From NCBI GenBank assembly GCA_044226285.1, contig JBGAHI010000004.1, positions 154,731 through 218,730 of the forward strand: 64,000 nt of DNA, given 5' to 3'. Numbering within the stretch: position 1 is the first letter of the stretch; each line of letters begins with the position of its first letter. This DNA is from Chitinophagales bacterium. GTDB taxonomy: Bacteria; Bacteroidota; Bacteroidia; Chitinophagales; LD1. The position numbers were made by a program, and so were the translations under genes. The notes under the pieces were generated by a model. The model saw only the letters and a program-made list of their open reading frames with translations. It had not been told where the DNA came from and did no database searches. This document shows positions 3,001-49,253 of the stretch, in pieces.

Positions 3001-3016
3001 GTATTTTTTTTGTCAT
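1..3016 (-). CDS. Giant cell-surface adhesin, N-terminal ~1005 aa; the ORF runs off the left window edge. SprB-repeat / Ig-like-repeat protein
   Basis: Hand translation of the minus strand from the ATG at complement 3014-3016 gives MTKKILFSFLAALATCFSYAQ (signal peptide). The frame then stays open to position 1 (spot-checked at 2881-3016, 1451-1501 and 1-60). It is absent from the ORF track because no stop lies inside the window. It has about 4 repeats of Q.FCG.GDP..L....YQWQSS.DG..W..I.GA....YDPP...T.YYRR, followed by 6 or more repeats of V.C.GG.DG.I...(T)GG..PY.Y, the SprB-repeat signature. Confidence 0.8.
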   Translation of the reverse strand, partial: MTKKILFSFLAALATCFSYAQTISYQIEIYQLGWEGRSDQSGDPEYTYHVWATDNQVGATETGGQCIYTGDDYGPAASNGFVSCSPGGTLFGSGVGIRNEVNVPNSTTTALIRFEAFEKDCSNNCFFVSSCGFLNSLEDDDHAQCNNYSVNFRSSPPCVWTDYPVQSCGTFSYGVRIKWWYEGILGGNIGSNQSFCGSGDPSTLNNTALATGDPYTIYQWQSSPDGITFTNIPGANSKDYDPPVVTTTTYFRRKATACTSGATAFSNNVVVTISSPLATPAIAADQSFCGTFDPVLIGGPASTGTACIVYTWEESADGIIWGTAASNSAALTYDPPVISGATKYYRRRADISCGSGNPAGCASYSNIVTVKSVTPITNNVISGNQTLCDYGDPTLLSGTVPTGGASNVYQWQSSPDGVGSWTDIFGANSQNFDPPPTGTTVYYRRNISSPPCSSTSNVISVQVTPAIVANFIVTNIYQRFCQSGDPAVITASPPGGGTGSYTYVWEISTNGGATWTPAPGVNNGVNYDPGVTSVTTEYRRRVISGICSLEMTTYAQVLILPLPTIASVTSTNVSCFGGNDGTINVAASSTNGNVTFSSNNGGSYQISGTFSGLTAGNYNIVVQDDSLCSRPYVGNPFVITEPALLTLATVKQDASCTSVFDGSITATPTGGTANYSYTLNNGPSQPNNVFSGLSAGTYTVEVTDSKGCKATSSITIGNSYIVSANLDSSKNVSCFGGSDGAIYVSLTGGIAPYSYSIDGFIFQPLSSFTGLTSGNYTITLRDSKGCTEYLPVSISQPAQVSVVIDSIKNVACSGIGTGGIYITTQGGTSPYTYLWTNGSTNEDLTNVNAGTYNVAITDSKGCTGNAGATITQPLPLFVTLAQSSNVLCKGDSSGYIDITVSGGVPQYTFVWNTSDTSEDLSNLVGGNYAVTVTDANGCQKFLTHTVTEPTQALTVVLSKTDATCNGAADGTATATVSGGTSPYTYLWSNNATTNSISGLVAGAYF

Positions 3017-5646: not shown

Positions 5647-5824
5647 GCTACAAGGTAAGGAAAAAAAACAAAAAAACATAACATTAACACTTGCCGGCCG
5701 TGTGCCGCTAAGAAGCCGCACCGGGTGTTGCGTTGCAATCTCCGCCAATGGGAATTGGCGTAGGATTTTCACTTCACCCCCTCACGGAGGCATTGAGGTT
5801 AAACTGAATTAGGCGCCCTAAAAA

Positions 5825-5963
5825 ATGGTTCGGCAAGGATGCCGACCATAGACAAACTTCTACCAAGATGATTTTTGAGCCTCTAGCTGCTAGCTTTTAG
5901 GTATTAGAGGCTAAAGCAGACTAAACTTTAAGTGCATACATGGTCGGCATCCCTGCCGACCAT
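5825..5963. repeat. REP/MITE-like intergenic element: two inverted copies of a 24-25 nt hairpin flanking a central hairpin
   Basis: ATGGTTCGGCAAGGATGCCGACCAT (5825-5849) and ATGGTCGGCATCCCTGCCGACCAT (5940-5963) are near reverse complements of each other, and each is itself a 10-bp stem-loop. A central stem pairs AGCCTCTA (5878-5885) with TAGAGGCT (5905-5912). A degenerate third copy, ATGGTTCGGCAAGGAT, lies at 6130-6145 with the same A-rich, cgccc-containing left flank. Confidence 0.5.
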
Positions 5964-6063
5964 CATCAAAGTAGTTCAAAAGATTCCCGTTTTCACGGTC
6001 ATTACGATGAATGCATATTTTGCCAATAATCCGAAATGCCGCGTGCGGATGGAAGTGAAAATC

Positions 6064-6091
6064 CTTTATCCCGCTTCAGAGTGGGATAAAG
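6064..6091 (-). terminator. Possible weak intrinsic terminator downstream of dus
   Basis: A 9-bp stem pairs CTTTATCCC with GGGATAAAG around a 10-nt loop. On the minus strand it is followed by GATTTTCA. The T-run is short, so confidence is low. Confidence 0.3.
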
Positions 6092-6193
6092 ATTGCAACG
6101 AACAGCCGGTAACACGCCCAAAAAAACAAATGGTTCGGCAAGGATAGCGAATTGAGTTTCTTCACTTCTAAAGGCGAGTAGCTAAAGGCTTCT

Positions 6194-7231
6194 TCACCCA
6201 TCCACACCCTGATATTCCGTTGGTGTATTCGCTTTAGCGTAGATATTTTCTTTGTCTTTGTAATGGAAAAAAATCTCATCCAAAATCGACTCAATCTCTT
6301 TCGGGTCCATGCTTTCCACCAAGCGCATCCGGTAGGCTTTAATATTTTCCAGGCCTTTAAAATACGGACCGTAATGTCTGCGCATTTCTAAAATGCCTAA
6401 GGTCTGATTCTTCCATTGAATGGAGCGCTGTAAATGCTCCTTGGCCACAGCAACGCGCTCTTCTAAAGTAGGAGGCGCTAATTTTTGTCCGGTTTTCAGG
6501 TAATGTTTCACTTCGCGGAAAATCCACGGATACCCAATAGCTGCGCGGCCAATCATCACTCCATCAGCACCGTATTGCTCGAGCATGGTTTTCGCATCTT
6601 CCCCATTCATTACATCTCCATTTCCAAAAACAGGTATACGCAAACGCGGATTTTCTTTCACTTTGGCAATCCAAGTCCAATCGGCCTTGCCGGTGTACAT
6701 TTGGTGCTTGGTGCGGCAGTGAATGGAAATAGCGTGTATGCCCACATCTTGCAAGCGCTCTGCTACTTCCACAATTTTAATAGAATTCGCATCCCAACCA
6801 ATACGTGTTTTTACGGTAACCGGCAATTTGGTGGCTTTTACGATGGCTTCTGTGAGTTTCACCATTTTATCGATATCGCGCAAAACGCCTGAACCGGCAT
6901 TTTTGCACACTACATTTTTCACCGGACAGCCATAATTAATATCCAACAATTCGGGTTTGGCGGCTTCAACAATTTCAGCCGAGCGGGTCATGGCCTCTAT
7001 TTCACCGCCAAATATTTGGATACCCACCGGGCGTTCATCCTCAAAAATATCGAGCTTTTTCAAGCTTTTATCGGCATCGCGAATCAACCCATCTGAGGAA
7101 ATAAACTCGGTATACAGCATATCGGCCCCGTTCTTCTTACATAAATGACGGAAAGGCGGATCGCTCACATCCTCCATGGGCGCCAACAATAAAGGGTTCT
7201 CCCCCAAATCGATATGTGCTATTTTAGCCAT
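6194..7231 (-). CDS. dusB: tRNA-dihydrouridine synthase
   Basis: The N-terminus reads LLLAPMEDVSDPPFR, the catalytic Cys context is NYGCPVKNV, and the length and TIM-barrel pattern are typical of the Dus family. Confidence 0.85.
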   Translation of the reverse strand: MAKIAHIDLGENPLLLAPMEDVSDPPFRHLCKKNGADMLYTEFISSDGLIRDADKSLKKLDIFEDERPVGIQIFGGEIEAMTRSAEIVEAAKPELLDINYGCPVKNVVCKNAGSGVLRDIDKMVKLTEAIVKATKLPVTVKTRIGWDANSIKIVEVAERLQDVGIHAISIHCRTKHQMYTGKADWTWIAKVKENPRLRIPVFGNGDVMNGEDAKTMLEQYGADGVMIGRAAIGYPWIFREVKHYLKTGQKLAPPTLEERVAVAKEHLQRSIQWKNQTLGILEMRRHYGPYFKGLENIKAYRMRLVESMDPKEIESILDEIFFHYKDKENIYAKANTPTEYQGVDG

Positions 7232-7321
7232 TGGCGCAAAAGTAATCCATCTGTTGATATATTTTTCAGAAAATCGAGCCGCTGAATTTGTGTTTCGAAT
7301 AATTTCTTAGGTTTGTAAGGC

Positions 7322-8248
7322 ATGAATTCAATCGGCCATAACAGACCACATCCATTTTTGCAGTTGGCGATACTGTTCGGTTTGGTGACCATGTGTCTTT
7401 TTCTTTGTCTTTTTATTGTGAAGTTCAGTTTGCATCCCCTGTTTGGCATTGCCGATCCTGACGTGTTTATCACTTCGCTTACCCTTCAGAAACAACATAC
7501 CTACGCTGCTCTTTTTATGCAGTCGTTGGCGTCAACTTGGGGTATGTTTTTGTTGCCGTCCATTATTTTCACACAAGTGATGCGCTACGATGTTGGGGAG
7601 TTTTTCAAAGTCAATCGTTGGCCATCGTTCATCAACATCCTCACGGCTACATTCATTATTGCCTGCGGCATTGTTTTCGTAAATTTTATTGTGGAGCTCA
7701 ATAAGCAAATTCCTTTGCCGAGCGCCCTTTCATCCTTACGCGATACGCAAGGCAATGCCGATGAACTGATTCTTTCTTTCTTTTCTGAAAACTCGAACAC
7801 GCACTTTTTCGTTTTAGTATTGGCATTAGCTGTTCTTCCGGCTATAGCTGAAGAGTTATTTTTTAGAGGTGTGATTCAAAACATGTTGCAAAAATCGGGT
7901 ATGACGGCCATGGCATCTATTGTTGTTACGGGGCTATCGTTCAGTGTTATGCACTTGGAATTCGATAATTTTGTGGCCATCTGGATGATGGGCATTGTGT
8001 TGGGTTGGCTGTATTACTATTCGCAAAATTTATGGGTGAGTATCATTGCGCATTTTCTGAATAATTTCAGCATGATTGCATTGAAGTTTGCCTTTTTCAA
8101 CGGAGTTACCCCTACCGATATGAGCGAAACAACAAACCCTCCAGTGCTTTTATCGTTGGCATGTGGAATTATCATGGTGGTTTTATTAATTTGGTTTCGC
8201 AATCGGAATCAAAATGCCATTTCGTTATCCGATTCTATTGATTTATAA
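7322..8248 (+). CDS. CPBP family intramembrane glutamic endopeptidase (CAAX protease/Abi family)
   Basis: Polytopic membrane protein with the EELFFRG motif and the downstream SVMH and IIAHFLNNF histidine motifs. Confidence 0.75.
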   Translation: MNSIGHNRPHPFLQLAILFGLVTMCLFLCLFIVKFSLHPLFGIADPDVFITSLTLQKQHTYAALFMQSLASTWGMFLLPSIIFTQVMRYDVGEFFKVNRWPSFINILTATFIIACGIVFVNFIVELNKQIPLPSALSSLRDTQGNADELILSFFSENSNTHFFVLVLALAVLPAIAEELFFRGVIQNMLQKSGMTAMASIVVTGLSFSVMHLEFDNFVAIWMMGIVLGWLYYYSQNLWVSIIAHFLNNFSMIALKFAFFNGVTPTDMSETTNPPVLLSLACGIIMVVLLIWFRNRNQNAISLSDSIDL

Positions 8249-9985: not shown

Positions 9986-10363
9986 ATGAAAAAGGGAATC
10001 GCAACTATTATTGCATCGTTATTAATATTAACTATTGCATTTGCAAAGCAAGAAACCGCAAAACCGGCTTGTTGTAAGGACAAAACAACTGCTCAATGCC
10101 AAAAAGAACACGGAAAAGATTGCTGTAAAGGCAAACCGGCTGCAGAATGCAAACATTCAGACGGTAAAGCTTGTGCTAAATCTGCCGATGGAAAAGCTTG
10201 TTGCAAAGCAGGCGAGCATGCTTCAGCAGAAGCTAAACCGGCCTGTTGCCAAGGTAAACCGGCTGCAGAATGCAAACACAGCGAAGGAAAAGCTTGTGCT
10301 AAATCTGCAGATGGCAAACCATGTTGCAAAGCAGGCGAACACAAAGAGGAGCCGAAGAAATAA
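9986..10363 (+). CDS. Secreted Cys/Lys/His-rich tandem-repeat protein (possible metal-binding protein)
   Basis: Signal peptide MKKGIATIIASLLILTIAFA, followed by about 104 residues with 15 Cys (five CC pairs) and 5 His. The unit GKPAAECKHS.GKACAKSADGK.CCKAGEH occurs twice with a 126-nt period. Confidence 0.7.
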   Translation: MKKGIATIIASLLILTIAFAKQETAKPACCKDKTTAQCQKEHGKDCCKGKPAAECKHSDGKACAKSADGKACCKAGEHASAEAKPACCQGKPAAECKHSEGKACAKSADGKPCCKAGEHKEEPKK

Positions 10364-15179: not shown

Positions 15180-15512
15180 ATGAAATATGTATTGCTCTAT
15201 GCTGCAATCATTGCCAATATATTGACCAACGTAGGATTCAATTTTTCCGCTATTTACGATAAAGAGCCGGTGAAAAAATGGGGTTTTTTAGCCATAGGTT
15301 TAGTGTTTGGATTAATCAATTCAGTATTGTTTACTGAGAGCTTAAAAAGCATACCGCTGCAGGTTGCGAGTGCTATATTTTTCTCAGTAACCATTGTGGG
15401 TTTGTTTTTGGTTTCCTATTTCTATTTCAACGAACACGTAACACCCATGCGTATTGCAGGCGTTTTTGTGATTACCTTAGGCGTAATTATGGTTTCGTTG
15501 GAAAGAGTTTAA
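15180..15512 (+). CDS. Small 4-TM membrane protein, SMR/DMT-like
   Basis: It is 110 aa with four hydrophobic helices, the size and topology of SMR or ArnE/F-type proteins. The conserved TM1 Glu of EmrE is not evident, so the function is uncertain. Confidence 0.45.
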   Translation: MKYVLLYAAIIANILTNVGFNFSAIYDKEPVKKWGFLAIGLVFGLINSVLFTESLKSIPLQVASAIFFSVTIVGLFLVSYFYFNEHVTPMRIAGVFVITLGVIMVSLERV

Positions 15513-15518
15513 AACCAA

Positions 15519-17531
15519 TTACTCTGTTTTGAGAAACGGTTTCACATATTTATTGGTTGCCGTTTCCACTGCAACAGTATAGGCTCCACTTGGCCATCCG
15601 GAAACAAATATTGCCTTGGTATTAGACGAACCAATGAATACTTTTTCTTCATACACCATTTGTCCAAACATATTAGAAACATGAATTGTGGCTTGTTGAT
15701 TTTGGATGGCCGATAAATCGATGTTTAATTTGTCGGATGAAGGATTTGGATAGATTTTCAACGCATCGTTCGCGGCAATTTCTTTTACCCCTGTTGTTGT
15801 AGCGCTATCCACTCCCCAAGCATATTCAATGGTGGTAGTATCGAAATTAATTTTCGAATAATACACATATTGATTCGGTTGAGCTACAGTATCCAAATAC
15901 CAACGTTCTTGGTATGTTGCTTGGTCTACCTTGGCTTGAAACTGGGTAAATGTGCCATACATAGCCGAGTCACCCACAATAATCACCCAAGTTTGGCCTT
16001 TATCCATATAACATGCGGCAACGTTATTGATGCTGTCTAAACAATGTCTGCGAACAGCCACATACTGATTGGCTTGACGACCCAACAACCACATACTGTC
16101 TTGTTTAACTTCATCGAAATCGGCTGTATTAAAATGCAATGCCACCTCCGGATTTTTAGAAGGAAGTATGGGCGATTTAAACTCAGGGCGATACATGAGT
16201 AAAGCTACATTGTGTTTTTGTCCAACGTAAGGAAGATTATCGTTTAAATTAGAAGCCGACCGTGCATCCCAGTTTTGTTTCACTTGGCCACTAGCCGTGA
16301 ACACCGCAGTAGTGCCTATATTGGCAACACAAGGAAATTGCTGATAGCCTAATTTACCTTTCCAAAAATCTTTAACGGACGAAAGTGTTATGGATTTGTG
16401 TTTGAAAATTACGGCATCTTCATTACAAATCACTGTACTTTTTGATGCAACTGTGAGTTGTTGTGCCAATGACGAAATGGTAGAAGAATCGAACTGCGAA
16501 AACGCTGCAAAAGGAGCGAAATCTACATGCTTCCAAAGATTGGAATCGATGAGCAATTGGCCTGTTGTTCCTGCAACACGTGGATCGAAGTATCCACCAA
16601 AGCTCCATTGGAAAATTGTTCTATCTAAATAGGATTGGCCGCTATTCAACACAAAACTAGTGTCGAGGGTATGGCCAATATGGTATGTGATATCCAGTTC
16701 CGATTTCCATGAATCTATAATTGAATCTACAGGGAGTGAAGATGAGGCTAAAAAGCCCCCAGCATGTGAAGCACCTGTTGGGGCTAACCCGAAACCGGTT
16801 AACAAATAGATAAGATTATTATGATTTTGATCGTACGCATTTTCATACTTTCCGAAGTAGTTTCTTCCGGCTGTTGGAAAGAATACACCTTGATCGTTAG
16901 TGATCATTAATAATTCTTTCAGTAAACGTTGAGATGCAAGTGTAGCTAATGCTTTAATTTCTGTGTCTTGTGCAAAATCAGCAAGGTTCAATAATCCGCT
17001 TAAGCAATATGGGGAATAAACAGAGCTAAAAAATTCGTAAAAACCATAGTTAACTTTGAGACGTAAATAGTGTCGCAAACGGTTGTCGAGATTGGCATCA
17101 ATTGCTTTACCATACTTCTCATGCAAAATCCAATCCGATGACATCCATTGAATCATGTGGTTTTCCGACCAATAACCATGCAATGTATCGCCTTTGGTCA
17201 TCCAAAATGGAATGGAATCCAAAGCCGGCAGAATTAAACTATTGTATTGTCCGGAACTTAAACATAAAATACGCACTAGCTGTACAATGTCGAAGTCAAC
17301 TGTGCCTGTTCTTCTGATATCGCTAACCATTTGGTGCAATGTTGCTGAGTCGACAGGAACGCCCATATAGGCTTGAATGGTAATTGTATGCCGTGAAAAA
17401 TTAGACAACGAATGATTAATGTAATCGGTTCTGCGTTGTTCGTAAACGGGATTATTCGCAAAAGATGAAAACGAAAACATTGAAACGAAGAACAATAAGC
17501 CCAATGAGAGCTGTTGGGTAGACATACGCAT
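15519..17531 (-). CDS. Secreted protein with T9SS C-terminal sorting domain; uncharacterised ENH-motif catalytic-looking domain
   Basis: The likely start is MRMSTQQLSLGLLFFVSMFSFSSFA (signal peptide). The C-terminal ~80 aa (LKIYPNPSSDKLNIDL...YTVAVET...KPFLKTE) fits a Por/T9SS type A tail. The core shares YWSENH...GFYEFFSSVYSPY with the lipoprotein at 28141-29784. Confidence 0.7.
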   Translation of the reverse strand: MRMSTQQLSLGLLFFVSMFSFSSFANNPVYEQRRTDYINHSLSNFSRHTITIQAYMGVPVDSATLHQMVSDIRRTGTVDFDIVQLVRILCLSSGQYNSLILPALDSIPFWMTKGDTLHGYWSENHMIQWMSSDWILHEKYGKAIDANLDNRLRHYLRLKVNYGFYEFFSSVYSPYCLSGLLNLADFAQDTEIKALATLASQRLLKELLMITNDQGVFFPTAGRNYFGKYENAYDQNHNNLIYLLTGFGLAPTGASHAGGFLASSSLPVDSIIDSWKSELDITYHIGHTLDTSFVLNSGQSYLDRTIFQWSFGGYFDPRVAGTTGQLLIDSNLWKHVDFAPFAAFSQFDSSTISSLAQQLTVASKSTVICNEDAVIFKHKSITLSSVKDFWKGKLGYQQFPCVANIGTTAVFTASGQVKQNWDARSASNLNDNLPYVGQKHNVALLMYRPEFKSPILPSKNPEVALHFNTADFDEVKQDSMWLLGRQANQYVAVRRHCLDSINNVAACYMDKGQTWVIIVGDSAMYGTFTQFQAKVDQATYQERWYLDTVAQPNQYVYYSKINFDTTTIEYAWGVDSATTTGVKEIAANDALKIYPNPSSDKLNIDLSAIQNQQATIHVSNMFGQMVYEEKVFIGSSNTKAIFVSGWPSGAYTVAVETATNKYVKPFLKTE

Positions 17532-37516: not shown

Positions 37517-40500
37517 TTATTTCAGCACATTCAATCGCTTACTGAAGCGTTGTCCATCGATTTTAAACGATACAATGTACGTTGCCGCAGATAAATCTTC
37601 AGTTTGAATAACATAAGTATTAAAGCCTTTCCTCAAATCAATGGTCTCCGACTTAATAAACTTGCCTGTAACTTCATAAACATCAACTATTGCAGCTTGA
37701 TCGTTTGTAATAAACAAATCAATTTTAGATCGCTCTTTTGTAGGATTCGGAATAAAATCGCCAATAGCCGTTTTTCCGTCACCCACTAACATTGCTGTAG
37801 CAATATTACTGTATTCAAAAGCAACGTTGCCAATATCAATTTGTTTTAAACGATAGTAATAGCGCACATTTTGAAGCGCAGTCTTATCGTCAAAAGTATA
37901 ATATTGGGTTATCGTTGAATTATCATTCCCTTTCACCCAGCCAATTTTCACGAAAACAGATCCATTCGTACTTCGTTCAATTTCAAATCCTGCATTATTG
38001 ATTTCAAGTGCGGTTGACCAATCAAGTCTAACGTAACTATTTTCAATAGCGGTTGCAGTAAACGCTATTAATTTTACCGGCAAACCTGCTCCCGGTGAAG
38101 AGAATCCATATCCACCCGTACCTCCTGAGAACGAAGTAATGCCATTGAATTGCGCATAAAGAACACCATTTTCAGTTAATGCCGTTGTGTTAGCATCCGT
38201 AAGTGTTACATTAGGAAATCCATTGAAACTATTGCCATCGATAAGATTGATACGTGTTGCATCGAAAGGAACACCTACCGTTTTAAACCATCTAAATGGT
38301 GTTTTAGATGTAGAAGGATATGGCGTCCATGCAGCATCACGAGCTGAAAGCGATGCTGCTTTCTCTGACGGATCGTAGAAGAATTTCACATCTACAGTTC
38401 CGGAAATACTACCCGACAACATTTCCACATTCCAATAGCGATTCATTAAATATGACCCATGCTCATAGCCCGGTTTAGTAGTGTTAATATGATCAATTGT
38501 TGAGCCCGGAATTGTAATATCCACTTTAGCCGTAAATGAATTCCCATTTTTTCGAATGGCAAATAACCAATCATCAGGATTAGTAGTAGTTGCATAATAC
38601 GTCCATCCTGCATCAGAGCATTGTTCTAATGCAGTTGTAACAGTGCTGGATGGCAAGATAACAAGCGCAGCAGCAGATTTTACTGTTACTGTTACCGATG
38701 CATCATTTGTACATGAGTAGCTATTTGTTACAGAAACCGTGTATGGTGTGGTAGTGGTCGGATTTACCGTCCCACTTGATACATTGCCAACTATTCCTGA
38801 GCTCCAAGCGTAGTTTGTTATAGTACCGCTACCGGCTATTGCTCCGGCATCTAAGAGTACATTGTCATTTGCACAAACAGTCATTGGTGTGGCTGTTGGT
38901 GAAATGACAGGCACAGAACGAATCGTAAGTGTGATTGCTGTTCGTGTAGAACTTACGCAACCTGAAGTCGTATTTCTTCCTTCTGCATAATAGGTATATG
39001 TTCCAGGAATCGGGTTCGGTCCAGTACCATCGATGGCTTCGTTAAAGAAAGTAGAAGAACTTTTCACTAAAGAACCTCCCGATGCTGCATCGTACCAGTC
39101 AATCGTTTCTCCTGCTCCAACTGTAGCCGTTAAATTTGGAACTGCCGTTCTATAACAAGCCTCCTTATCGCCACCAGATGTTGGAACAGAAGCACCTGCA
39201 CCAAATACAACTGTTACATCGGCAGTAGCAGGAGTACACACTCCATTGCTCACTGTCCATCGAAATACGTATGTTCCTCCAACAGATACTGTTGCTGTTG
39301 AACTTCCTGAAGTAGATCCACTAAATGTTGAAGTACCCGGACCAGAGAATTGTGACCATACACCTGTTCCCGGACTAGGTGTATTTCCACCTAATGCAGC
39401 GCTTGTTAATCCACAAGCTATTAATGGTGTTGTTGTAATACTTGATGTTGGAACAGCATCTACATTCACCGTTACTGTTGCACAAGTCGTGTTATTGCAT
39501 GTTCCCTCATAACGACCATAATACGTAGTAGTTGTTGTTGGGGATACAGATAAACTGTTACCAGTTCCTGCTAATGTTCCACCACATGAACCCGTATACC
39601 ATTTAATTGTTGCTCCAGTTCCACCCCCACCTCCTGTGAGTGTTAGTGAGCTGCTTGATCCATTACAAATCGTTGCAGGTGATGCTGAAGCTGAAGTTGG
39701 CGATGTAGATAATGTATTGACTGTTACTAATTGCGAAGCACAAGTAGTGGTATTACATGTACCACTGTAGCGCACATAATACGTGGTGTTACTGGTTGGA
39801 GATATAGTAATACTATTACCGGTACCTGCAGATGTTCCACCGCATGAGCCGGTGAACCACTCAACTGTTGCTCCGGTTCCTGCGCTACCTCCACTAACCG
39901 TTAACGTAGTACTTCCTCCATTACAAATTGTTGTTGTTCCTGTAATGCCGCTTGGCGCAGTAGATAATGTATTGACTGTTACTAATTGCGAAGCGCAAGA
40001 AGTGGTATTACATGTACCGTTATAGCGCACATAATACGTGGTGTTGCTGGTTGGCGATACCGTAATACTATTACCGGTTCCTGCTGATGTTCCTCCACAC
40101 GAGCCGGTGAACCACTCTGCTGTTGCTCCCGTTCCTGCACTACCTCCACTAACCGTTAACGTAGTACTTCCGCCATTACAAATTGTTGTTGTTCCCGTAA
40201 TTCCGGTTGGCGCTGTAGATAATGTATTGACTGTGACAGTTGTGGTTACACAAGCTGTATTATTACATGTACCTTCATATCGGCCATAATATGTAGTAGT
40301 TGTAGTTGGAGATACCGACAAGCTATTGCCCGTTCCTGCTAATGTTCCACCACATGAGCCGGTATACCATTTAATCACGGCCCCTGTTCCTCCTCCTCCT
40401 CCGGTAAGTGTCAACGTACTGCTTGATCCATTACAAATCGTTGCAGGTGATGCTGCCGCTGAAGTTGGATCTGTAGATAATGTATTGACTGTTATAGTAA

Positions 40501-42976
40501 CTGAGGCACAGGCTGTATTATTACATGTGCCTTCCGCTCTAACATAATATGTAGTAGTACTTGTTGGAGACACCGTTATAGAAGCACCTGTTCCCGCTAA
40601 TGTTCCGCCACAAGAACCTGTATACCACTTCCAAGCGCCACCGGTGCCTAATGAACCTCCACTTACAGTCAACGTAGTACTTCCGCCATTACAAATCGTT
40701 GTTGTTCCTGTTACACCCGTTGGCGCTGTAGATAAAGAATTTATTGTTACAGTAATCACGTTGCTCCATCGTGCGCAACCATCAATTCCGTTTATAGTTC
40801 TTCTTATATAGGTAGTTGTTGATGTTAACGTTCCCGTTTCAGTGAAACCGGTCGCATTCGTTCCTCTGTCTGTCCAACCCACACCAGCTGTTGTTTGCCC
40901 ATCGGCAGGCACCGCACACGCACCACCTGTACAACTAAACCAATTGTAGGTATAGCTTCCAGTACCTCCTGTGGATGCTGTTCCTGTAAATGCAGTAGGC
41001 GTTCCACTTCCACAGAATGTTTGGTTAGCTGAAATAGTTCCTGCAACAGGAGCAGTATAAGATGGATGAACAAGATTCGTTTGTATTGTTCCATTACTTC
41101 CACTAAACCCTGCATTGTTTCCGTTCGTTGCAGCTCCTCCACTACCCAAATTAGCCTGATACGACCCTGTTGTAACGTTGTTCTGACAAGGATTCAAGAA
41201 GAACTTTATACGACCTCCACTACCGCCAGCTCCTGCTCTATTCGGGAAATAACAACCTCCTTGAGCAGGTCCCGGATAACCTGAAGCTCCGCCTGAGCCT
41301 CCATTCGCATTAATACTTCCGGTAATAGTAGCTAAACCAAATGCCTGAATTAAAACACCTCCACCGGCTCCACCACCGGCACCACCACCACCTCCTCCTG
41401 TTTGAGGATAAGTATAGTATGTACAAACACCGCAAGCACTGTTATCTCTACATCCGGATGCTCCTGCCCATAAACTTCCTGTTACACAGCCACAATTATA
41501 AGATCCGTCACTCAGTCCACCCCCTTGTCCTCCGTTACCGCCATTAGCTCCACTTACATTTATACTTCCTGTAAGGGTAAATGCGTTTGAAGCTATTAGT
41601 GATACAGCACCGCCACCATTGCCGCCATTGCCGCCCGATGTTCCGCTTTGCCATCCGCCACCGCCACCTCCGGCACCTCCACCTCCTCCTCCGGCTGCAA
41701 TATCACTCCCTGTTGCTGTTCCGTGAGATGATCCTGCTGAACCTCCAGTACCACCACCTCCGGCTGATGGGTAGCTTCCACCACCTACGCCTTGAGATCC
41801 GTTGCCTCCGCTACCTGCTGTGTTGCCATATGCGCCTCCGCCTCCGCCTCCGCCTCCGCCAGCTCCGGATCTGAATCCATCATTACCCCCAATACAAGCA
41901 AAACCACAACCTATATTCACACAATTACCATTTCCTCCATTTGTACCTGCACCACCACCACCGGTACTTCCACCTGCACTTCCTGCACCACCACCGCCAA
42001 CTGTTCCACAACCCGATCCCGTAGCTCCACTTCCACCACTTCCACCACTTCCACCTGTACCCCCTTTCGCGGATGCATCAATTGTTCCACTTATGGTTAT
42101 ATTTGTCGCATTAATCACTAACGGACAACCTTGTGCTTCAGTGATAGTAACACCTGAGTTGAGCGTAAAATTACCGTTTATATTGTATGTTCCACCCATA
42201 ACTACATTTGAGGAAACAGTAACATTTCCTGCTCCAGCATTCGCTCGTGGTAAAACATTAATAGAACCGCTTGTTTGTTGGGTACACGTTCCATTATATG
42301 TCAACATGCGATAATAAGGATATTGCGGTGAAGTGCCACTGTTTGCTGAATAGGTAGTAGCTGTTGCTCCAGAGATATTAGACCATGTTGAATTGTCGTT
42401 TGAGCCTTGCCACTGATAGAATGGCCCCCCACCTGTTGCGGTAAAATCATTATTTGTACAGGTATAATTCACCGATACCGATGAAACTGTAGGAACAACT
42501 TGTGTGTAATTTAATAGTGCTGAATTGGCCGCACTGGGAGTAGGCGCACCGGGAGTAGGTAAAGGCAGACATGCATTTCCATTATTTACAACTACAATAT
42601 AATTATTGGTTGCATTGGTTGTAATATCGGCTGTAAAGGTCACTGAGCTCCCACTTGAACCTGCAAAAAAAGCCCAAGTGCCCCCTGCATTAGTTGATTT
42701 ATAAATGGATATTGATGGTGTGGTCCATCCGGTTCCACCGGTTGCGCTCAGGGTATACCGCGTTCCGTTCGTTGCCTGAAAATAAGTATAACCGGTGCTT
42801 GGGGGTGAAATAGATCCTGGAGAACACACATTTAGGTTGATAGCCGGAGATGCAGCTGAACCACTCGAAGCCCAACCTGCCCAACTGTTAGTAGTACACT
42901 GTGCATTGATTCTTTGTACAGAAAAGCATAGTATTGCAAAAGTAATTAGATAGTATCTAAGAGTAAAATTTTTCAT
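37517..42976 (-). CDS. Giant T9SS-secreted surface protein (~1819 aa): glycine-rich beta-helix-like head, 5 Ig-like tandem repeats, shared stalk module, T9SS C-terminal domain
   Basis: The likely start is MKNFTLRYYLITFAILCFSVQRINAQ. There is a ~285-aa Gly-rich segment, then 5 repeats of ~85 aa (ICNGGSTTLTVSGG..GTG...W(Y/F)TGSCGGT.AGTGNS..VSPT..TTYY). The C-terminus GDFIPNPTKERSKIDL...KRLNVLK fits a type A sorting tail. Confidence 0.85.
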   Translation of the reverse strand: MKNFTLRYYLITFAILCFSVQRINAQCTTNSWAGWASSGSAASPAINLNVCSPGSISPPSTGYTYFQATNGTRYTLSATGGTGWTTPSISIYKSTNAGGTWAFFAGSSGSSVTFTADITTNATNNYIVVVNNGNACLPLPTPGAPTPSAANSALLNYTQVVPTVSSVSVNYTCTNNDFTATGGGPFYQWQGSNDNSTWSNISGATATTYSANSGTSPQYPYYRMLTYNGTCTQQTSGSINVLPRANAGAGNVTVSSNVVMGGTYNINGNFTLNSGVTITEAQGCPLVINATNITISGTIDASAKGGTGGSGGSGGSGATGSGCGTVGGGGAGSAGGSTGGGGAGTNGGNGNCVNIGCGFACIGGNDGFRSGAGGGGGGGGGAYGNTAGSGGNGSQGVGGGSYPSAGGGGTGGSAGSSHGTATGSDIAAGGGGGGAGGGGGGWQSGTSGGNGGNGGGAVSLIASNAFTLTGSINVSGANGGNGGQGGGLSDGSYNCGCVTGSLWAGASGCRDNSACGVCTYYTYPQTGGGGGGAGGGAGGGVLIQAFGLATITGSINANGGSGGASGYPGPAQGGCYFPNRAGAGGSGGRIKFFLNPCQNNVTTGSYQANLGSGGAATNGNNAGFSGSNGTIQTNLVHPSYTAPVAGTISANQTFCGSGTPTAFTGTASTGGTGSYTYNWFSCTGGACAVPADGQTTAGVGWTDRGTNATGFTETGTLTSTTTYIRRTINGIDGCARWSNVITVTINSLSTAPTGVTGTTTICNGGSTTLTVSGGSLGTGGAWKWYTGSCGGTLAGTGASITVSPTSTTTYYVRAEGTCNNTACASVTITVNTLSTDPTSAAASPATICNGSSSTLTLTGGGGGTGAVIKWYTGSCGGTLAGTGNSLSVSPTTTTTYYGRYEGTCNNTACVTTTVTVNTLSTAPTGITGTTTICNGGSTTLTVSGGSAGTGATAEWFTGSCGGTSAGTGNSITVSPTSNTTYYVRYNGTCNTTSCASQLVTVNTLSTAPSGITGTTTICNGGSTTLTVSGGSAGTGATVEWFTGSCGGTSAGTGNSITISPTSNTTYYVRYSGTCNTTTCASQLVTVNTLSTSPTSASASPATICNGSSSSLTLTGGGGGTGATIKWYTGSCGGTLAGTGNSLSVSPTTTTTYYGRYEGTCNNTTCATVTVNVDAVPTSSITTTPLIACGLTSAALGGNTPSPGTGVWSQFSGPGTSTFSGSTSGSSTATVSVGGTYVFRWTVSNGVCTPATADVTVVFGAGASVPTSGGDKEACYRTAVPNLTATVGAGETIDWYDAASGGSLVKSSSTFFNEAIDGTGPNPIPGTYTYYAEGRNTTSGCVSSTRTAITLTIRSVPVISPTATPMTVCANDNVLLDAGAIAGSGTITNYAWSSGIVGNVSSGTVNPTTTTPYTVSVTNSYSCTNDASVTVTVKSAAALVILPSSTVTTALEQCSDAGWTYYATTTNPDDWLFAIRKNGNSFTAKVDITIPGSTIDHINTTKPGYEHGSYLMNRYWNVEMLSGSISGTVDVKFFYDPSEKAASLSARDAAWTPYPSTSKTPFRWFKTVGVPFDATRINLIDGNSFNGFPNVTLTDANTTALTENGVLYAQFNGITSFSGGTGGYGFSSPGAGLPVKLIAFTATAIENSYVRLDWSTALEINNAGFEIERSTNGSVFVKIGWVKGNDNSTITQYYTFDDKTALQNVRYYYRLKQIDIGNVAFEYSNIATAMLVGDGKTAIGDFIPNPTKERSKIDLFITNDQAAIVDVYEVTGKFIKSETIDLRKGFNTYVIQTEDLSAATYIVSFKIDGQRFSKRLNVLK
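39465..40745. repeat. Five tandem ~255-bp coding repeats inside the 1819-aa adhesin gene
   Basis: The protein repeats run in the order A-B-C-D-E, with C nearly identical to D and B nearly identical to E. The antisense track ORFs at 39783-40025 and 40038-40289 are near-identical to each other. Confidence 0.85.
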
Positions 42977-43075
42977 GGTGGTAGGCTTTGTTTGTTTTGA
43001 CACAAGAACTATTCCAGTTTTTTGTAGATTACTTATCATTTATGCGGAAATCGTTTACTTGCAAGATAATCATGC

Positions 43076-43083
43076 TATATTTG
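43076..43083 (+). promoter_or_regulatory. Candidate -7 box (TATATTTG) for the 43127 gene
   Basis: Matches TAnnTTTG 44 nt upstream of the ATG. Only an imperfect -33 (TTTA) is present. Confidence 0.3.
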
Positions 43084-43126
43084 AGAAATGCTGTTTATTT
43101 GTGGATAAGCCAAAATCGTATATAAA

Positions 43127-44464
43127 ATGATACAATCTAATCGTCTATTATCCAAAAAAGGATACAAAATATTGAGTGTGTTAATAGTTCTTCTAGCTAT
43201 AAATAATTATGTATTTGGAATCGGAAAAGCATCTGCTTCGGTGAATGAAACTAAGGTTCAGCTCAGCATCATGAACGGAGTCAACTATCTCATTAACAGT
43301 GCAAATCCAAAACCTGAAAAGGATGCTGCATTGGTAATCAACTACATCAATGAACATTACCATTTACACCTGCCCTATCCCACAATGGATGTTACACTCA
43401 ATAAAATTGTATTAAATTCTGAAAACCTTAGAATACTTGGAAGATGGTTCAATCCGAAATTTGTCCTTGATTCTTCGGCCTATGAAAAAAACATGCATGG
43501 ATTAGACTCCTTTATGCTTGTAAGTTTGTATTGCCAAAAATACGGACTTCCAGCTCATTTTCTTGCTGAGCTAGATAGCACAAGCAAGCTAGGCGGTTAC
43601 GAACTAACACATAGCTGTTTGCAATTTCAATGGTGTGTTAATAACGGCTGTCTGGAATTAGATTCTACAACAATAAAACTTCGTAAAAAATTAGTTCAAC
43701 GTTTATCAATTTTGCTATCTCAACAAAAAGAAAAAATTTATGATGTTGGGATAGAAGCTATTGCGGTTCATGATTTTATGAACATACCCTTGCCCGATAA
43801 ATCGAAATGGATTAAACGAATTTTAGCTTCTCAATTGGAAGATGGAGGTTGGGCTGCATTTGAAAACGACCACAACTCCTATCCTCACGCAAGTGCATTG
43901 GCTACTTGGGTACTTGTTGATTATATATTAGAACACCCATCATTGAAAGACTCTGCATCGTTGGAAAACATGACTGGCAGTGAATTGTACAGCAATTTCA
44001 ACATTTTGGCAAAAATTGATAGCAACATCCGATTTGCGGGATTAAACAGTATATTCTCTTTTCATGCAACAAGTGCAGACTCTGGTTATTATACCGGTGC
44101 CTTTTTGAAGTTTAAGGCTACTAAATCATCGTTATTAAAAAGCTATTATGCCGGAGTTAATCCTCCTTCACTTCGTGCAGCTATTAACAGCACTGATTCT
44201 TTAGCTTATCTAATTGAATACAAACATCATTTTACAGCAGGTAATAGCAATGAGTTGTTAGATACTCTTTTGGCAGAAGCTAAAACATTCCAACCTAAGG
44301 AATATGCTAATTATCTAAAGTTATTGGTTATTAAACGCATTTTGGAAGAAAAGAAGATATTCCCAAGTGAAAAAATTGTTTTGGCAAACCTTAAAAATAA
44401 AGAAGCGTATACCTCTAACGAACAAGTAAAGATTCTGGAGCTTTTCATTCGCAAAGAGGAATAG
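43127..44464 (+). CDS. Hypothetical exported protein, possibly alpha/alpha-toroid (prenyltransferase/squalene-oxidase-repeat-like)
   Basis: N-terminal signal anchor KILSVLIVLLAINNYVFG. One clear QW-type motif, SQLEDGGWAAFE, and a weaker one, SIMNGVNYLINS. Function is otherwise unrecognised. Confidence 0.5.
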   Translation: MIQSNRLLSKKGYKILSVLIVLLAINNYVFGIGKASASVNETKVQLSIMNGVNYLINSANPKPEKDAALVINYINEHYHLHLPYPTMDVTLNKIVLNSENLRILGRWFNPKFVLDSSAYEKNMHGLDSFMLVSLYCQKYGLPAHFLAELDSTSKLGGYELTHSCLQFQWCVNNGCLELDSTTIKLRKKLVQRLSILLSQQKEKIYDVGIEAIAVHDFMNIPLPDKSKWIKRILASQLEDGGWAAFENDHNSYPHASALATWVLVDYILEHPSLKDSASLENMTGSELYSNFNILAKIDSNIRFAGLNSIFSFHATSADSGYYTGAFLKFKATKSSLLKSYYAGVNPPSLRAAINSTDSLAYLIEYKHHFTAGNSNELLDTLLAEAKTFQPKEYANYLKLLVIKRILEEKKIFPSEKIVLANLKNKEAYTSNEQVKILELFIRKEE

Positions 44465-44656
44465 ACTTAAATCCTAAATACTTTATACTCTTTCTCCTAC
44501 AAAAAACACCTATCCAATTACTAACAGCCTGTAGGGGCTAATTTCTTTTATAACAATCGATAAAGCAGTTAAATCTCCACGTTAGCTTAACGCTAACATA
44601 TAGATGGAGTATAGTTTGTTTGACGAGAATCTGTTTAAAAAGGGCAGGCTAGAAAC

Positions 44657-44686
44657 AAAAGAGGTGGTCAAAAGACCACCTCTTTT
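44657..44686. terminator. Bidirectional intrinsic terminator
   Basis: AAAA-GAGGTGGTC-AAAA-GACCACCTC-TTTT is a perfect 9-bp GC-rich stem. It lies 18 nt past the stop of the 44704-48492 gene (minus strand) and downstream of the 43127-44464 gene (plus strand). Confidence 0.75.
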
Positions 44687-44703
44687 AAAAGATTATATTG
44701 TTC

Positions 44704-47700
44704 TTACTTCAGTACATTTAATCGCTTGCTAATGCGTTGATCATCTACTCGGAAGGAAACTACATAGGTAGCTGCCGATAAATCTCCTGTTTGAATGAAA
44801 TACGTATTAAATCCTTTTTTCATTTCGATACTTTCAGATTTAATAAACTTACCGGTTACCTCATAAACATCAATAACCGCTGTTTGATCTCTTGCAACAA
44901 ATAAATCTATAATTGCTTTTTCTTTTGCAGGATTTGGAACAAAATCGCCTACAGCAGTTTTCCCTTCGCTGATGATGGTCGCTGTAATAATATTACTGTA
45001 TTCAAAAGCTACATTTCCATTGTCGATTTGTTTCAATCGATAGTAGTAACGAATATTCGGTTGAGCAGTTTTGTCATCATACACATATTCTTGTCGTACT
45101 GTAGAGTTATCATGCCCTTGAACCCAAGCAATTTTAGTGAATTCGGTACCGTTTGTACTACGTTCTACCTCAAATCCTGCATTGTTCAATTCCAATGCTG
45201 TAGACCAATCTAATCGTATATAACTATTCTCGATGGCCGTTGCTGTGAAATCAATCAACTTAACAGGCAAACCAGTTCCCGGAGAAGAGAAACCATATCC
45301 GCCCGTTCCTCCTGAAAATGATGTGATACCATTAAATTGTGCGTAAGTAACTCCGTTTTCTGTTCCTGAAGCACTTTCAGTTAAAGTGATATTCGAAAAG
45401 TTATTGAAACTATTTCCATCGATAGAACTGATTACTGATGCAAAAGATGAACCCACCGTTTTAAACCATCTAAATGCTGTTTTAGAGGCTGTTGCTGAAT
45501 ATGGTGCCCATGCTGCATCTCTTGCATTTAATGCCGCTGTTTTCTCAGCCGGATCATAGAAGAATTTCACATCCACTGATGTTGAAATTGAACCACTTGT
45601 AACATTCACATCCCAATAGCGTTTCATCAAATATGACCCATGCTCATATCCGGCTTTTGAAGTATTAATATGATCTATTGTGCTACCTGCTACTGTAATA
45701 TCTACTTGTGCAGTGAACGAATTCCCATTTTTGCGAATAGCAAACGTCCAATCGTCAGGGGAAGAAGCCTTAGCATAATATGTCCATCCGCCATCAGTAC
45801 ATTGCTCTACTAAGGTGGTTACAGAACTTGTTGGCAAGACCACTAAAGCAGCTGCACTTTTAACAGTTACAGTTGTAGAGGCATCATTCGTACATGAATA
45901 GCTATTTTGAACTGTAACAGTATATATAGTAGTAGTTGTAGGATTTACAGTACCGCTTGCTACGGCACCTAATCCAGAACTCCATGCATAAGAGGTAATT
46001 GTTCCTGCCCCTGCTGTTGCGTTCGCATCTAATAGTACATTATCGCCAGAACATGCAGTATTTGGAGTTGCAGTTGGGGAAATAACAGGTACTGCACGGA
46101 TAGTAAGTGTAACAGCCACTCGCGTTGGACTTATACAACCAGAGGTAGTGTTTCTTCCTTCGGCATAATAAGTATAAGTACCGGGGAGTGGATTAGGGCC
46201 AGAGCCATCCGTTACTTCATTAAACGCAAGCGAACCTGTTTTTACCAATGTTCCGCCTGATGAAGCATCATACCAATCTGCAGTTTCGCCTGCCCCAACT
46301 GTTACCGTTAAATTTGGAACTGAGGCTTTATAACAAGCCTCTTTATTTCCGCCCGATGTCGGTACTGTTGCGCTAGAATTGTTAGTTAACACTACATCAT
46401 CCGTAGAGGCTGTACATGCTCCATTAGTAATTGTCCAACGCAATGTTGCTGATGTGCCTAGTGTAACACCTGATACTCCGGAATTGTTAGCAGATGGTGT
46501 AGTGATTGTAGCCGAACCACTCACTAAAGACCAAGATCCTGTTCCTATTACAGGCGAATTACCGGCCAATGTAAAGGAAGAGTTATTACAATTAGATTGG
46601 TCGGTTCCTGCGGCAGCTGTTGTAGGAACAGCATCACCACCTACCGTTACACTTGCTTCTACTGCAGGGCTACATGTGCCCGTTACGCGTGCATAATAGG
46701 TGCCCGGTCCCGCTGTTAATGTGGTTCCTGTGCCTAAGTTTGTGCCCGTTCCGCCTGAACCTGTCCACCACGTTACTGTGGCGCCAGCTCCGGCTACGCC
46801 ATTCGCTGTTAATGTTGTTGTAGCATTCGCACATATTGGACTTGCTGCTGCGGTAGCTGACGTAATCGCAGGGATTGCTGTTGAACCTACCGTTACACTT
46901 GCTTCTACTGCAGGGCTACATGTCCCAGTTACTCGAGCATAATACGTACCCGGTGGTCGATTTGTTAATGTGGTTCCTGTGCCTAAGTTTGTGCCCGTTC
47001 CTCCTGAACCTGTCCACCACGTTACTGTGGCGCCAGCTCCGGCTACGCCATTCGCGGTTAATGTTGTTGTAGCATTCGCACATATTGGACTTGCCGCTGC
47101 CGTAGCTGAGGTAATGGCAGGTATCGCATTAACCGTTACCGTATTAGTCGCACAAGCTCCTGCAGAACAAGATGTTCCAGTGCCGGGGTTATACCTGGCA
47201 TAATATGTAGTTGTAGTTGATGGAGCCGTAATAGTAGCTGCAACAGTAGTTGAGCCGGCTCCAGGCGAAGACGTGGCGACAAGCGTACCCCCACAACTTC
47301 CACTGTAAAATTGAACTGTTCCATTCATATTTACGGCTGTTGGAAAATTGGCGGTTAGCGTTATTGTTGCAGGAACTGCATTGGCGCAATAACTTGTTGA
47401 ACTAATAGAAAGAGATGAAGGATCTTCGTTCCAGCGGTTGGTTATTGTAGCGGTTGAGCCTGTTACATCGCATCCATTGTTTACTACTCGGTATCTTGTT
47501 CTATCGGGATCTCCATTACTCGTACCCACTTTTTTAGGGAAACAACAAGTACCAGAGGAGGTGCCGCTAACCCAAGCATTCCAAGCACCATTATTGCTAC
47601 CCCAATCCCAATTTACCGTTCCGCTTGCTGTTCCACTTGCAGTTACTGCTGTGGTGAAATCCCCAGAAGAATTACAAAAATTTACTGCTGTTGTAGAAAT

Positions 47701-48492
47701 AGTACCCACTGTTGGAGTTGTATGCTTATAGGTCAAAACAGTAGATGTTGTACTCCATGTACAACTGCTTCTGTTAGCGTAAACACGAATTGTTGGGGCA
47801 GTAGTTCCTGAAAACCACGCTGACTGATTAGAGGAAAATGAACTTGATGTCGCACCTGCACCACCAGAAATAACAGCAGCAGACCAAGCGCTTGATTGCG
47901 AACCATTTGTTACTGTAAAATCATACCAAACATTTGCTGCAAGGACAACATCCCTATATTGCCCTGATGCAACACCTAATGTTGATGCAGAACAACCAGA
48001 CGGAACAGAACCTGCTGCACCAGTACTTCCCAACTGACCTCCAGAAAGAGCAGTTGTTGGTAGCGCAAAGGTGTATGATTGAGTACAATTATCGGTTCCT
48101 CCACATCCGGTATGTCTAAAATTCCCAACATTAATACCGTTTGCATATATTGTAACACTTCCGGTACTATTCCAGTCATCTCCATCCCTATCTTGCACTA
48201 CAATAGTATAGTTACCACACATCCAAGGCATTGTTCCCAATGCTCTACCTGTAACCGAATAAGCAGTGTTTGCTCCATTATAACATTGTGAAGGATCGCA
48301 GAACCAACCAATAACGCTCTTTCCATTGGGATCTGTTAAATAAAACTGATTTTCACCAGACCAGCTGGGCCAATTAATATCTGCTGTAAACGTAACTTGA
48401 GCGTTTATAGCTTTCAACCCAAATAGCACGAACAGTATAGTCAATATAAGTACATTCCTGTTTCTATTAAATTTCGAGTAATTCTTTTCCAT
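44704..48492 (-). CDS. Giant T9SS-secreted surface protein (~1262 aa), paralogue of 37517-42976 with a different N-terminal head
   Basis: The likely start is [32 protein letters not shown]. The C-terminal ~640 aa (from GGDAVPTT to KRLNVLK) aligns residue for residue with the other giant protein. It has two near-identical 83-aa repeats and a T9SS tail. Confidence 0.85.
46640..47130. repeat. Two tandem 249-bp near-identical coding repeats in the 1262-aa adhesin gene
   Basis: [54 protein letters not shown]...[20 protein letters not shown] occurs twice. The nucleotide copies differ at only a few positions (compare 46721-46880 with 46970-47130). Confidence 0.85.
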
Positions 48493-48818
48493 GCCTAAAA
48501 ATGTTAATAAGTTCACTAAAGTAGGAATTATTTGTCAAAAAGCGTGCCTTTTATGTTTAAAAAATAAGTTGCAACCATATAACATTGTATATCAATGAGT
48601 TAAATTTGAAAAAATGAAAACAAGTTAGTAAAAATGAATGAGATTGTAGACTTTTAAGAACAGCGTTTTTTACTAAAAAGTACAGTTTTATTAGATAGTG
48701 GATAATACCGTTTAGCTACTTCATACTTTTTCTGCTATAAAATTTGGTTGATATGATACGAATTAATCGGTAGAGAAAAAAAAGTATGGCTGAATTTTAC
48801 ATTTGAAAAAGATTAAAC

Positions 48819-49253
48819 TTGCAGATAAAAAAGCCAAGATATAAACGAGAAATAAATGAGGTGTTAGAGAGAAAGCCAATCAAAGTTGTGAAACCCGGTA
48901 GCAGTAACACTAGAGAGTATATGCAGGAGGTATGGATATACAGGCATTTGATTGTAGTGTTTGCCAAACAGGAATTTAAATTGCAATTTGTGTAGACAAA
49001 ACTGAACCTCTTTTGGTTGGCACTTCGCCCACTTATGGTTTTAGCGCTGTTCTCTTTTATTTTTGATCTTGTAATTCGTTTTCCAGGGTTAGAACACCCT
49101 TATCCGCTATTTGCATTTTCTAGACTAATCATTTGGAACAATTTTAGTTTCATGTTCAATAGCGTAGGGTCAGTGTTGATTACCAATCATCCTTTGATTA
49201 AAAAGGTGTTTTTCCCACATGTTATTATTATATTCGCAAAATTGCTGAATTAG
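48819..49253 (+). pseudogene. Disrupted and truncated ABC-2 (Wzm-type) permease gene
   Basis: The frame reads ...REYMQEVWIYRHLIVVFAKQEFKLQFV*TKLNLFWLALRPLMVLALFSFIF...FFPHVIIIFAKLLN*. An in-frame TAG at 48993-48995 sits in the position of the conserved Y-K-Q-T block. The ORF ends after roughly 140 aa, against 278 aa in the intact paralogue immediately downstream, which it aligns to. Confidence 0.65.

Follow-up and report, generated by a model that had tools for sequence, protein, structure and literature searches.

Two old type IX secretion cargo paralogues of an uncultured Chitinophagales bacterium and probable recombination at their locus in relatives

Genes at the locus

The window analysed here is a stretch of 64,000 nt from an uncultured Chitinophagales bacterium, and whole-genome searches were run over its 3.62-Mb assembly. 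Two of its genes, here called A and B, encode what by sequence are type IX secretion system (T9SS) cargo proteins, composed of an N-terminal head, tandem repeats and a common C-terminal module, the tail. It is probable that A and B are old paralogous surface proteins, and that their locus swaps heads, tail patches and repeats by recombination in relatives of this bacterium. The features recognized were the following:

37517..43039, minus strand: gene A, by sequence a type-A cargo protein of the T9SS, with 1840 aa when read from the first ATG
40756..42976, minus strand: head of gene A, an N-terminal Cys-containing domain followed by a Gly-rich region of ~400 aa
39480..40753, minus strand: repeats of gene A, five tandem 255-nt units with one Ig_7 domain each
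37517..39460, minus strand: tail module of gene A, 647 aa and the stop codon, six domains in the same order as in the B tail
~38084-38677, minus strand: copy of domain iv in gene A
~37532-37750, minus strand: type-A C-terminal sorting domain (CTD) of gene A
43127..44464, plus strand: intervening gene, a 445-aa helical protein, predicted to be exported, with a QLEDGGW motif
44704..48516, minus strand: gene B, by sequence a type-A cargo protein of the T9SS, with 1262 aa when read from its first ATG at 48492, the position given in the initial annotation, or 1270 aa when read from a GTG
47128..48492, minus strand: head of gene B, Cys- and Trp-rich
46639..47127, minus strand: repeats of gene B, two tandem 249-nt units, 91-95% identical
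46378..46635, minus strand: domain 1 of the B tail, an immunoglobulin-like (Ig) domain of the PKD/K319L type
45859..46377, minus strand: domains 2 and 3 of the B tail, an Ig_7 domain and a further Ig-like domain
45271..45858, minus strand: domain iv of the B tail, modelled as a beta-sandwich of ~190 aa with one long helix
44956..45270, minus strand: FN3-like domain of the B tail, with the motifs LDWST...FEVERS...YYYRLKQID
44707..44955, minus strand: type-A T9SS CTD of the B tail (Pfam PF18962)

The initial annotation had counted five repeat units in A and two in B and had called the N-terminal parts unrelated. Both counts were correct, and the heads had no similarity to each other apart from the common Ig_7-type repeats. 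The Ig_7 domain (PF19081) scored above the Pfam threshold in both proteins, with 199 bits over six stretches in A and 71 bits over five stretches in B. No Pfam match at E <= 1 was found for the two heads or for the 445-aa protein between them. As neither head matches any family, the label "adhesin" is unproven for A and B.

Both translations began with a hydrophobic N-terminus ending in ...INAQ, read by eye and without a signal-peptide predictor. The true start of gene A is likely Met22 at 42976, immediately 5' of the putative signal peptide MKNFTLRYYLITFAILCFSVQRINAQ. The gene A orthologue of one relative, L031, had a different signal peptide, MRNAIHKHSIIVCLLLSFSAFKGYAQ, in front of a near-identical mature protein (10001-10100, compared with 42976-43039 of the window), pointing to another breakpoint at the gene's 5' end.

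Domains of the tail

Counted from the shared DAVPT motif, the tails were about 648 aa (A) and 644 aa (B) long. From the N- to the C-terminal side they consisted of a PKD-like Ig domain, an Ig_7 domain, an Ig-like domain, domain iv (~190 aa), an FN3-like domain and the type-A sorting domain. The AlphaFold2 (AF2) model of the B tail (pLDDT 83.8) had six beta domains, with a terminal beta-sandwich at the CTD.

The sorting domain was recognized with PF18962 at 26.8 bits in A and 28.8 bits in B (Pfam cut-off 27). With TIGR04183 (cut-off 23), A and B scored 22.2 and 20.9 bits by hmmscan, and 29.6 and 24.5 bits in a six-frame scan of the genome. Neither protein had an SprB or type-B hit in the Pfam and NCBIfam scans. 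The genome also encoded a PorU sortase (NF033707, 1252 bits, above the cut-off, C5:121955-125290) and ~140 open reading frames (ORFs) with a CTD.

Domain 1 matched the repeats of Aureispira GhpA in sequence (E = 3e-14). A Foldseek search with the whole tail gave only generic strings of Ig and FN3 domains, including fragments of GhpA.

Domain iv, modelled alone by AF2, reached a pLDDT of 93.1 and a pTM of 0.87. It had no Pfam or NCBIfam family match, and Foldseek found nothing significant in the PDB (best E = 0.047) and no significant match among the viral models of BFVD. Of 1.84 billion cluster representatives, an exhaustive search detected it in 427, on host proteins of 293-2679 aa. In 126 of the 138 complete matches, 180-220 aa separated its end from the C-terminus, and 121 of 140 matched proteins also had a detected FN3-like domain and CTD. 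From this fixed position and co-occurrence it follows that domain iv forms an obligatory unit with the FN3-like domain and the CTD. In this family of tails, the FN3-like domain and the CTD recurred on many proteins per genome.

The initial annotation had also listed a third giant adhesin beginning at 3016. A large protein is indeed encoded there (2-3016, minus strand, continuing to C5:152008), of another class: it is 1912 aa long, its T9SS C-terminus is of type B (CHU_C-like), it contains SprB repeats, and it does not carry the tail of A and B. For this protein, too, the label "adhesin" is unproven.

The locus in relatives

Relatives were found by searching with the B tail, and came from metagenome-assembled genomes (MAGs) and metagenomes of uncultured Chitinophagales. 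Five metagenome contigs (L031-L035) and three genomes of the genus, including G003 and G005, were compared at the locus. The closest was L031 (NCBI GCA_046329565.1), with flanks 97% identical to those of the window. G003 is a different species, its flanking proteins being 92-99% identical to those of the window. The contigs of L033, L034 and G003 were 132, 187 and 238 kb long, respectively.

The chromosomal site was shared. It lay between a glycan/ABC-2 gene cluster and the genes SLT-YebC-ProC-ThrC, and held one to three tail-bearing genes, in the following orders:

Window: ABC-2, B, 445-aa gene, A, SLT
L031: gene order as in the window
L032: ABC-2, B, gene with a PA14 head, gene with a Gly_rich_2 head, SLT
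L033: PMT_2/TPR gene, gene with a He_PIG head and a B-type tail, 458-aa gene, A, ABC-2 (inverted flank)
L034: PMT_2/TPR gene, gene with a PKD-array head and a B-type tail, gene with a PA14 head, SLT
L035: ABC-2, "head 3" gene, methyltransferase gene (contig end)
G003: a single "head 3" gene between ABC-2 and SLT

The proteins that bore these tails in the relatives were 700-1730 aa long. In independent assemblies from NCBI, JGI, ENA and Logan, tails 58-95% identical carried no fewer than 10 different heads. None of the He_PIG, PA14, Gly_rich_2 and "head 3" heads had a homologue in the genome of the window, and the head of gene B was also present in L032 and L031 (93-95% nucleotide identity). 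The genes downstream of the B tail were alternative cassettes at one site: the 445-aa gene accompanied gene A in L031 and L033, and the gene with the PA14 head took its place in L032 and L034.

In another genome, G006 (L042, G006:C57, 3475-4497), a different tail bore a head homologous to that of gene A (65% amino acid identity over 345 residues). Heads thus move between tail types too.

A remnant of an ABC-2 permease allele (48776..49249) separated gene B of the window from the intact ABC-2 gene. The homology to L031 and to L032 ended inside it, at 49240 and 49249, respectively. The remnant was 55% identical in amino acids to the permease of L033, against 42% for the intact copy. Beyond the remnant, the glycan cluster differed between the window and L031, although their opposite flanks were 97% identical. 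By its sequence, the remnant looks like the edge of a replaced glycan cluster beside the B head.

Two further observations concern single relatives. In L033 an ABC-2/glycan cluster was located downstream of gene A (15430-16266) and inverted relative to the window, suggesting an inversion or a larger rearrangement with one end near the B tail. In L031 the gene B orthologue (3615-8130) was broken up into ORFs of 606, 109 and 770 aa. The frame changes fell within the tandem repeats, and the gene is either misassembled there or a pseudogene.

Head replacement, conversion tracts and repeat changes

The B-type tail, with 87-93% nucleotide identity, was carried by three unrelated heads, and the breakpoints fell within ~20 nt of the module start. 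Homology to the window began at 46626 in L033 and at 46651 in L034, which is the module start and the 5' edge of domain 1. From there, the homology between L033 and the window was continuous (89.6% over 6.6 kb), through both the gene between B and A and the A head. At the protein level, there was no relation upstream of the motif PTTAAAG and ~90% identity downstream of it.

L032 and L034 were 97.95% identical over 5170 nt, a stretch that begins 16 nt ahead of the module and extends through the PA14 gene. Upstream of it the two had nothing in common, and their SLT/YebC flanks were 86.9% identical. A cassette of 98% identity beside flanks of ~87% indicates that the cassette moved between genomes ~13% diverged.

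Exchange was also seen within the tails. In L032, the B tail and the tail of the adjacent PA14 gene were 97-100% identical over ~400 nt, including a perfect run of 191 nt, between flanks of only 60-75%, and the tails of the PA14 and Gly_rich_2 genes shared a tract of 97-100% over the sorting domain. The B tails of the window and L031 were 98-100% identical save for two patches at 63-88% (alignment columns ~120-530 and 1830-2073). A GENECONV-style permutation test with 5000 shuffles gave 0/5000 for each of these three pairs. No donor for the first divergent patch of the window's B tail (columns 120-530) was found in the window's genome. The A tails of the window and L031 were 100% identical. 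Conversion tracts between adjacent tails were found in two separate assemblies, L032 and L034; near-identical DNA tracts between paralogues of one genome were confined to these two and were not present in the window. Trees of tail segments were incongruent: with one segment the PA14 tails fell within the B clade, with the others far away from it. Mosaic domain variants in conflict with the phylogeny of the flanks were thus found in the family, and not in the A/B pair.

The internal repeats varied as well. Gene A had five units in the window, four in L031 and three in L033, and gene B had two in the window, ~5 in L031 and six in L032.

Several points weigh against recombination at this locus, or against the functions assigned to its proteins. 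All comparison loci were metagenome-assembled, and each B-tail head swap comes from one contig, L033 and L034, respectively. A search of JGI metagenome contigs with a 200-aa query spanning the head/tail junction of L034 yielded no second copy of this junction, all hits being generic PKD-array proteins of <=66% identity. Frameshifts occurred in these genes in L031 B, L033 and L034, and assembly quality is imperfect. Short-read assemblies can collapse tandem-repeat counts. The scores of the sorting domain lay at the family thresholds, borderline but consistent across scans, and secretion, surface anchoring and adhesion are predictions from sequence.

Alternatively, the locus could be stable, and the apparent swaps and mosaics could be chimeras created where metagenome assembly made false joins through the conserved tail; that all relatives are MAG or metagenome contigs would suit this. 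The contigs of G005, assembled from short reads, do break inside tails, and the frameshifts and the lack of an independent copy of the junction in the JGI contigs are in line with it. We nevertheless regard this as quite unlikely. The breakpoints lay at the start of the least conserved domain of the tail, and misassembly joins only within shared sequence, so that even a chimera implies that each head owns a near-identical tail. Furthermore, the many heads were found in independent assemblies from four sources, G003, another species, had a single gene there, with a third head, on its 238-kb contig, and conversion tracts recurred in assemblies made separately.

Age of the A and B tails

The two tails of the window were collinear and aligned with six gap columns, in agreement with the initial annotation, which had seen ~640-aa ends without notable gaps. 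Its estimate of three-quarters identity fits most of the module (~76%) and is slightly high for the whole, which was 71% identical in amino acids and 69% in nucleotides; the first ~80 residues reached only 36-50%, domain 1 being the least conserved part of the tail. BLASTP of the wider A/B region gave E = 0. The DNA copies were direct repeats, 7178-7187 nt apart. Paralogy, shared tail, T9SS signal, direct orientation and spacing of ~7.2 kb had all been described correctly. Over 27 family members 28 columns were invariant, which shows that the similarity of the tails is not one of low complexity, a possibility that had been raised with the original description.

By the Nei-Gojobori method, the proportion of synonymous differences (pS) between the A and B tails was 0.66, and synonymous divergence (dS) was ~1.6 (~1.8 without the first 80 codons), with a nonsynonymous divergence (dN) of ~0.2 and a dN/dS of ~0.1. 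Synonymous sites are saturated between the two, and purifying selection on the tail is strong. The longest identical run of DNA was 22 nt, and no 60-nt window exceeded 85% identity. The longest concordant run of polymorphic sites was 12, a length reached in 383/5000 shuffles and not significant for gene conversion. A-type and B-type tails formed separate clades in every genome that had both (the window, L031 and L033). A blastn search of both genes against the whole assembly found no copy beyond A and B, and a protein search of the genome found a single distant relative, of the last two tail domains only. A and B are old paralogues: their tail lineages predate the species compared, and there was no mutual exchange in this genome. 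Strain comparison had been expected to distinguish exchange from an ancient, stable pair; the pair proved ancient and free of mutual exchange, while the locus is not stable.

Taken alone, the A/B data, with their saturated dS, low dN/dS and absence of tracts, fit a plain ancient tandem duplication followed by divergence of the heads or accretion of domains, the tail similarity reflecting constraint and the family being free of recombination. As an account of the family this is improbable. It leaves unexplained the 98% cassette between genomes with 87% flanks, the range from ~60% to 100% identity along one tail pair, and the 100% identity of the window and L031 B tails outside two replaced patches.

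The initial annotation had proposed that the shared segments of A and B could mediate deletion, duplication or head swapping. A 22-nt perfect match is at or below the minimal processing segment for RecA-type recombination, and DNA with 31% divergence and such short perfect matches is a very poor substrate for homologous recombination. That the two 1.95-kb repeats are active substrates for 7.2-kb deletions, duplications or A/B head swaps in the population is therefore very improbable: their direct orientation, spacing and collinearity would suit it, as would the adjacent tails that convert one another in a relative, but their 69% identity and saturated dS, the lack of any tract of elevated identity, the non-significant permutation test and the reciprocal monophyly of the A and B tails in three genomes all speak against it. 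The broader suggestion of a cassette-like diversification holds for the relatives, with their head replacements, conversion tracts and alternative cassettes, and fails for this A/B pair.

Discussion

Under recombination at the family's locus, as we favour it, the tail would act as a stalk, export and anchoring unit that presents interchangeable heads, and its conserved DNA may offer a homology anchor at which DNA that was taken up or transferred replaces heads and neighbouring genes. In the relatives, heads give way to others along with the glycan genes upstream, the breakpoint being at the 5' edge of the tail; gene conversion passes tracts of 200-400 nt between adjacent tails; and internal Ig repeats come and go. 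Such a process would be allelic replacement on evolutionary time scales, and not a programmed switch.

In a more far-reaching version, domain iv would be a new fold, and its ligand would be the glycan on the surface of the cell itself, the product of the adjoining variable gene cluster, with the tail as a portable homology anchor and heads and glycan clusters exchanged together between species. The invariant Trp, Tyr, Arg, Lys and Asn of the domain, among them W25, Y27, R80, W82, K133 and N168, would suit a sugar-binding site, which is a guess. We consider this version unlikely as a whole; if true, surface sugar and surface protein would be diversified in a co-ordinated way at one hot spot.

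The closest parallel is the RgpA/Kgp/HagA group of Porphyromonas gingivalis, T9SS cargo proteins that have adhesin domains and C-terminal domains in common (Dashper et al. 2017, PMC5266723). Their domain variants are mosaic and unrelated to strain phylogeny, and allelic exchange and rearrangement were inferred from genome comparison (PMC5266723). Both cases involve type-A T9SS cargo paralogues with different N-terminal parts and common C-terminal modules. However, the shared domains of the gingipains are cleaved adhesin/DUF2436 domains, whereas here they are Ig_7, domain iv and FN3-like domains; the paralogues there have near-identical DNA, and A and B are only 69% identical; and the heads there are proteases, while those of A and B have no family match and are known as sequences alone.

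Other large surface proteins of Bacteroidota are similar in part. GhpA, the grappling hook protein of Aureispira (PDB 9flp, 5898 aa), also has strings of PKD/Ig-like domains, but only the generic Ig-type domains match, and neither the hook architecture nor a counterpart of domain iv was found. The gliding adhesins SprB and RemA are likewise large, repetitive T9SS surface proteins of multigene families, and Ig_7 itself is named "CHU_C associated". In contrast to their type-B CTD and SprB repeats, A and B have a type-A sorting domain and no SprB repeats.

With polymorphic toxins (Rhs, contact-dependent inhibition (CDI)) and the exchange of phage tail fibres, the locus shares a fixed delivery module, interchangeable ends, breakpoints at the boundary and exchange between genomes. 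Compared with these systems, the polarity is reversed, the conserved part being C-terminal here because the T9SS signal is C-terminal, and there were no immunity genes, orphan cassettes or toxin domains in the heads. We rejected a polymorphic-toxin system, as toxin and immunity signatures were both lacking. The pilE/pilS and vlsE systems also alter parts of a surface protein by gene conversion, but unlike them, the locus had no silent copies, no high-identity repeats around a variable cassette and no sign of frequent switching within a strain. Programmed antigenic variation was likewise rejected, since blastn detected no silent copies in the 3.62-Mb genome.

A literature search combining T9SS, Chitinophagales and adhesin found nothing. 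Recombination-driven mosaicism of T9SS cargo is already documented in P. gingivalis (PMC5266723), and the locus therefore represents no new kind of biology; what is added is an uncultured lineage and an undescribed conserved domain. The locus offers an example of T9SS surface-protein diversification in uncultured Chitinophagales of the activated-sludge type, in which heads, internal repeats and adjacent genes change around a putative export and stalk module that is kept. A three-domain tail (domain iv, FN3-like domain and CTD), uncharacterised so far and occurring in ~430 protein clusters, is defined with it, which is useful for annotation and as a target of structural work.

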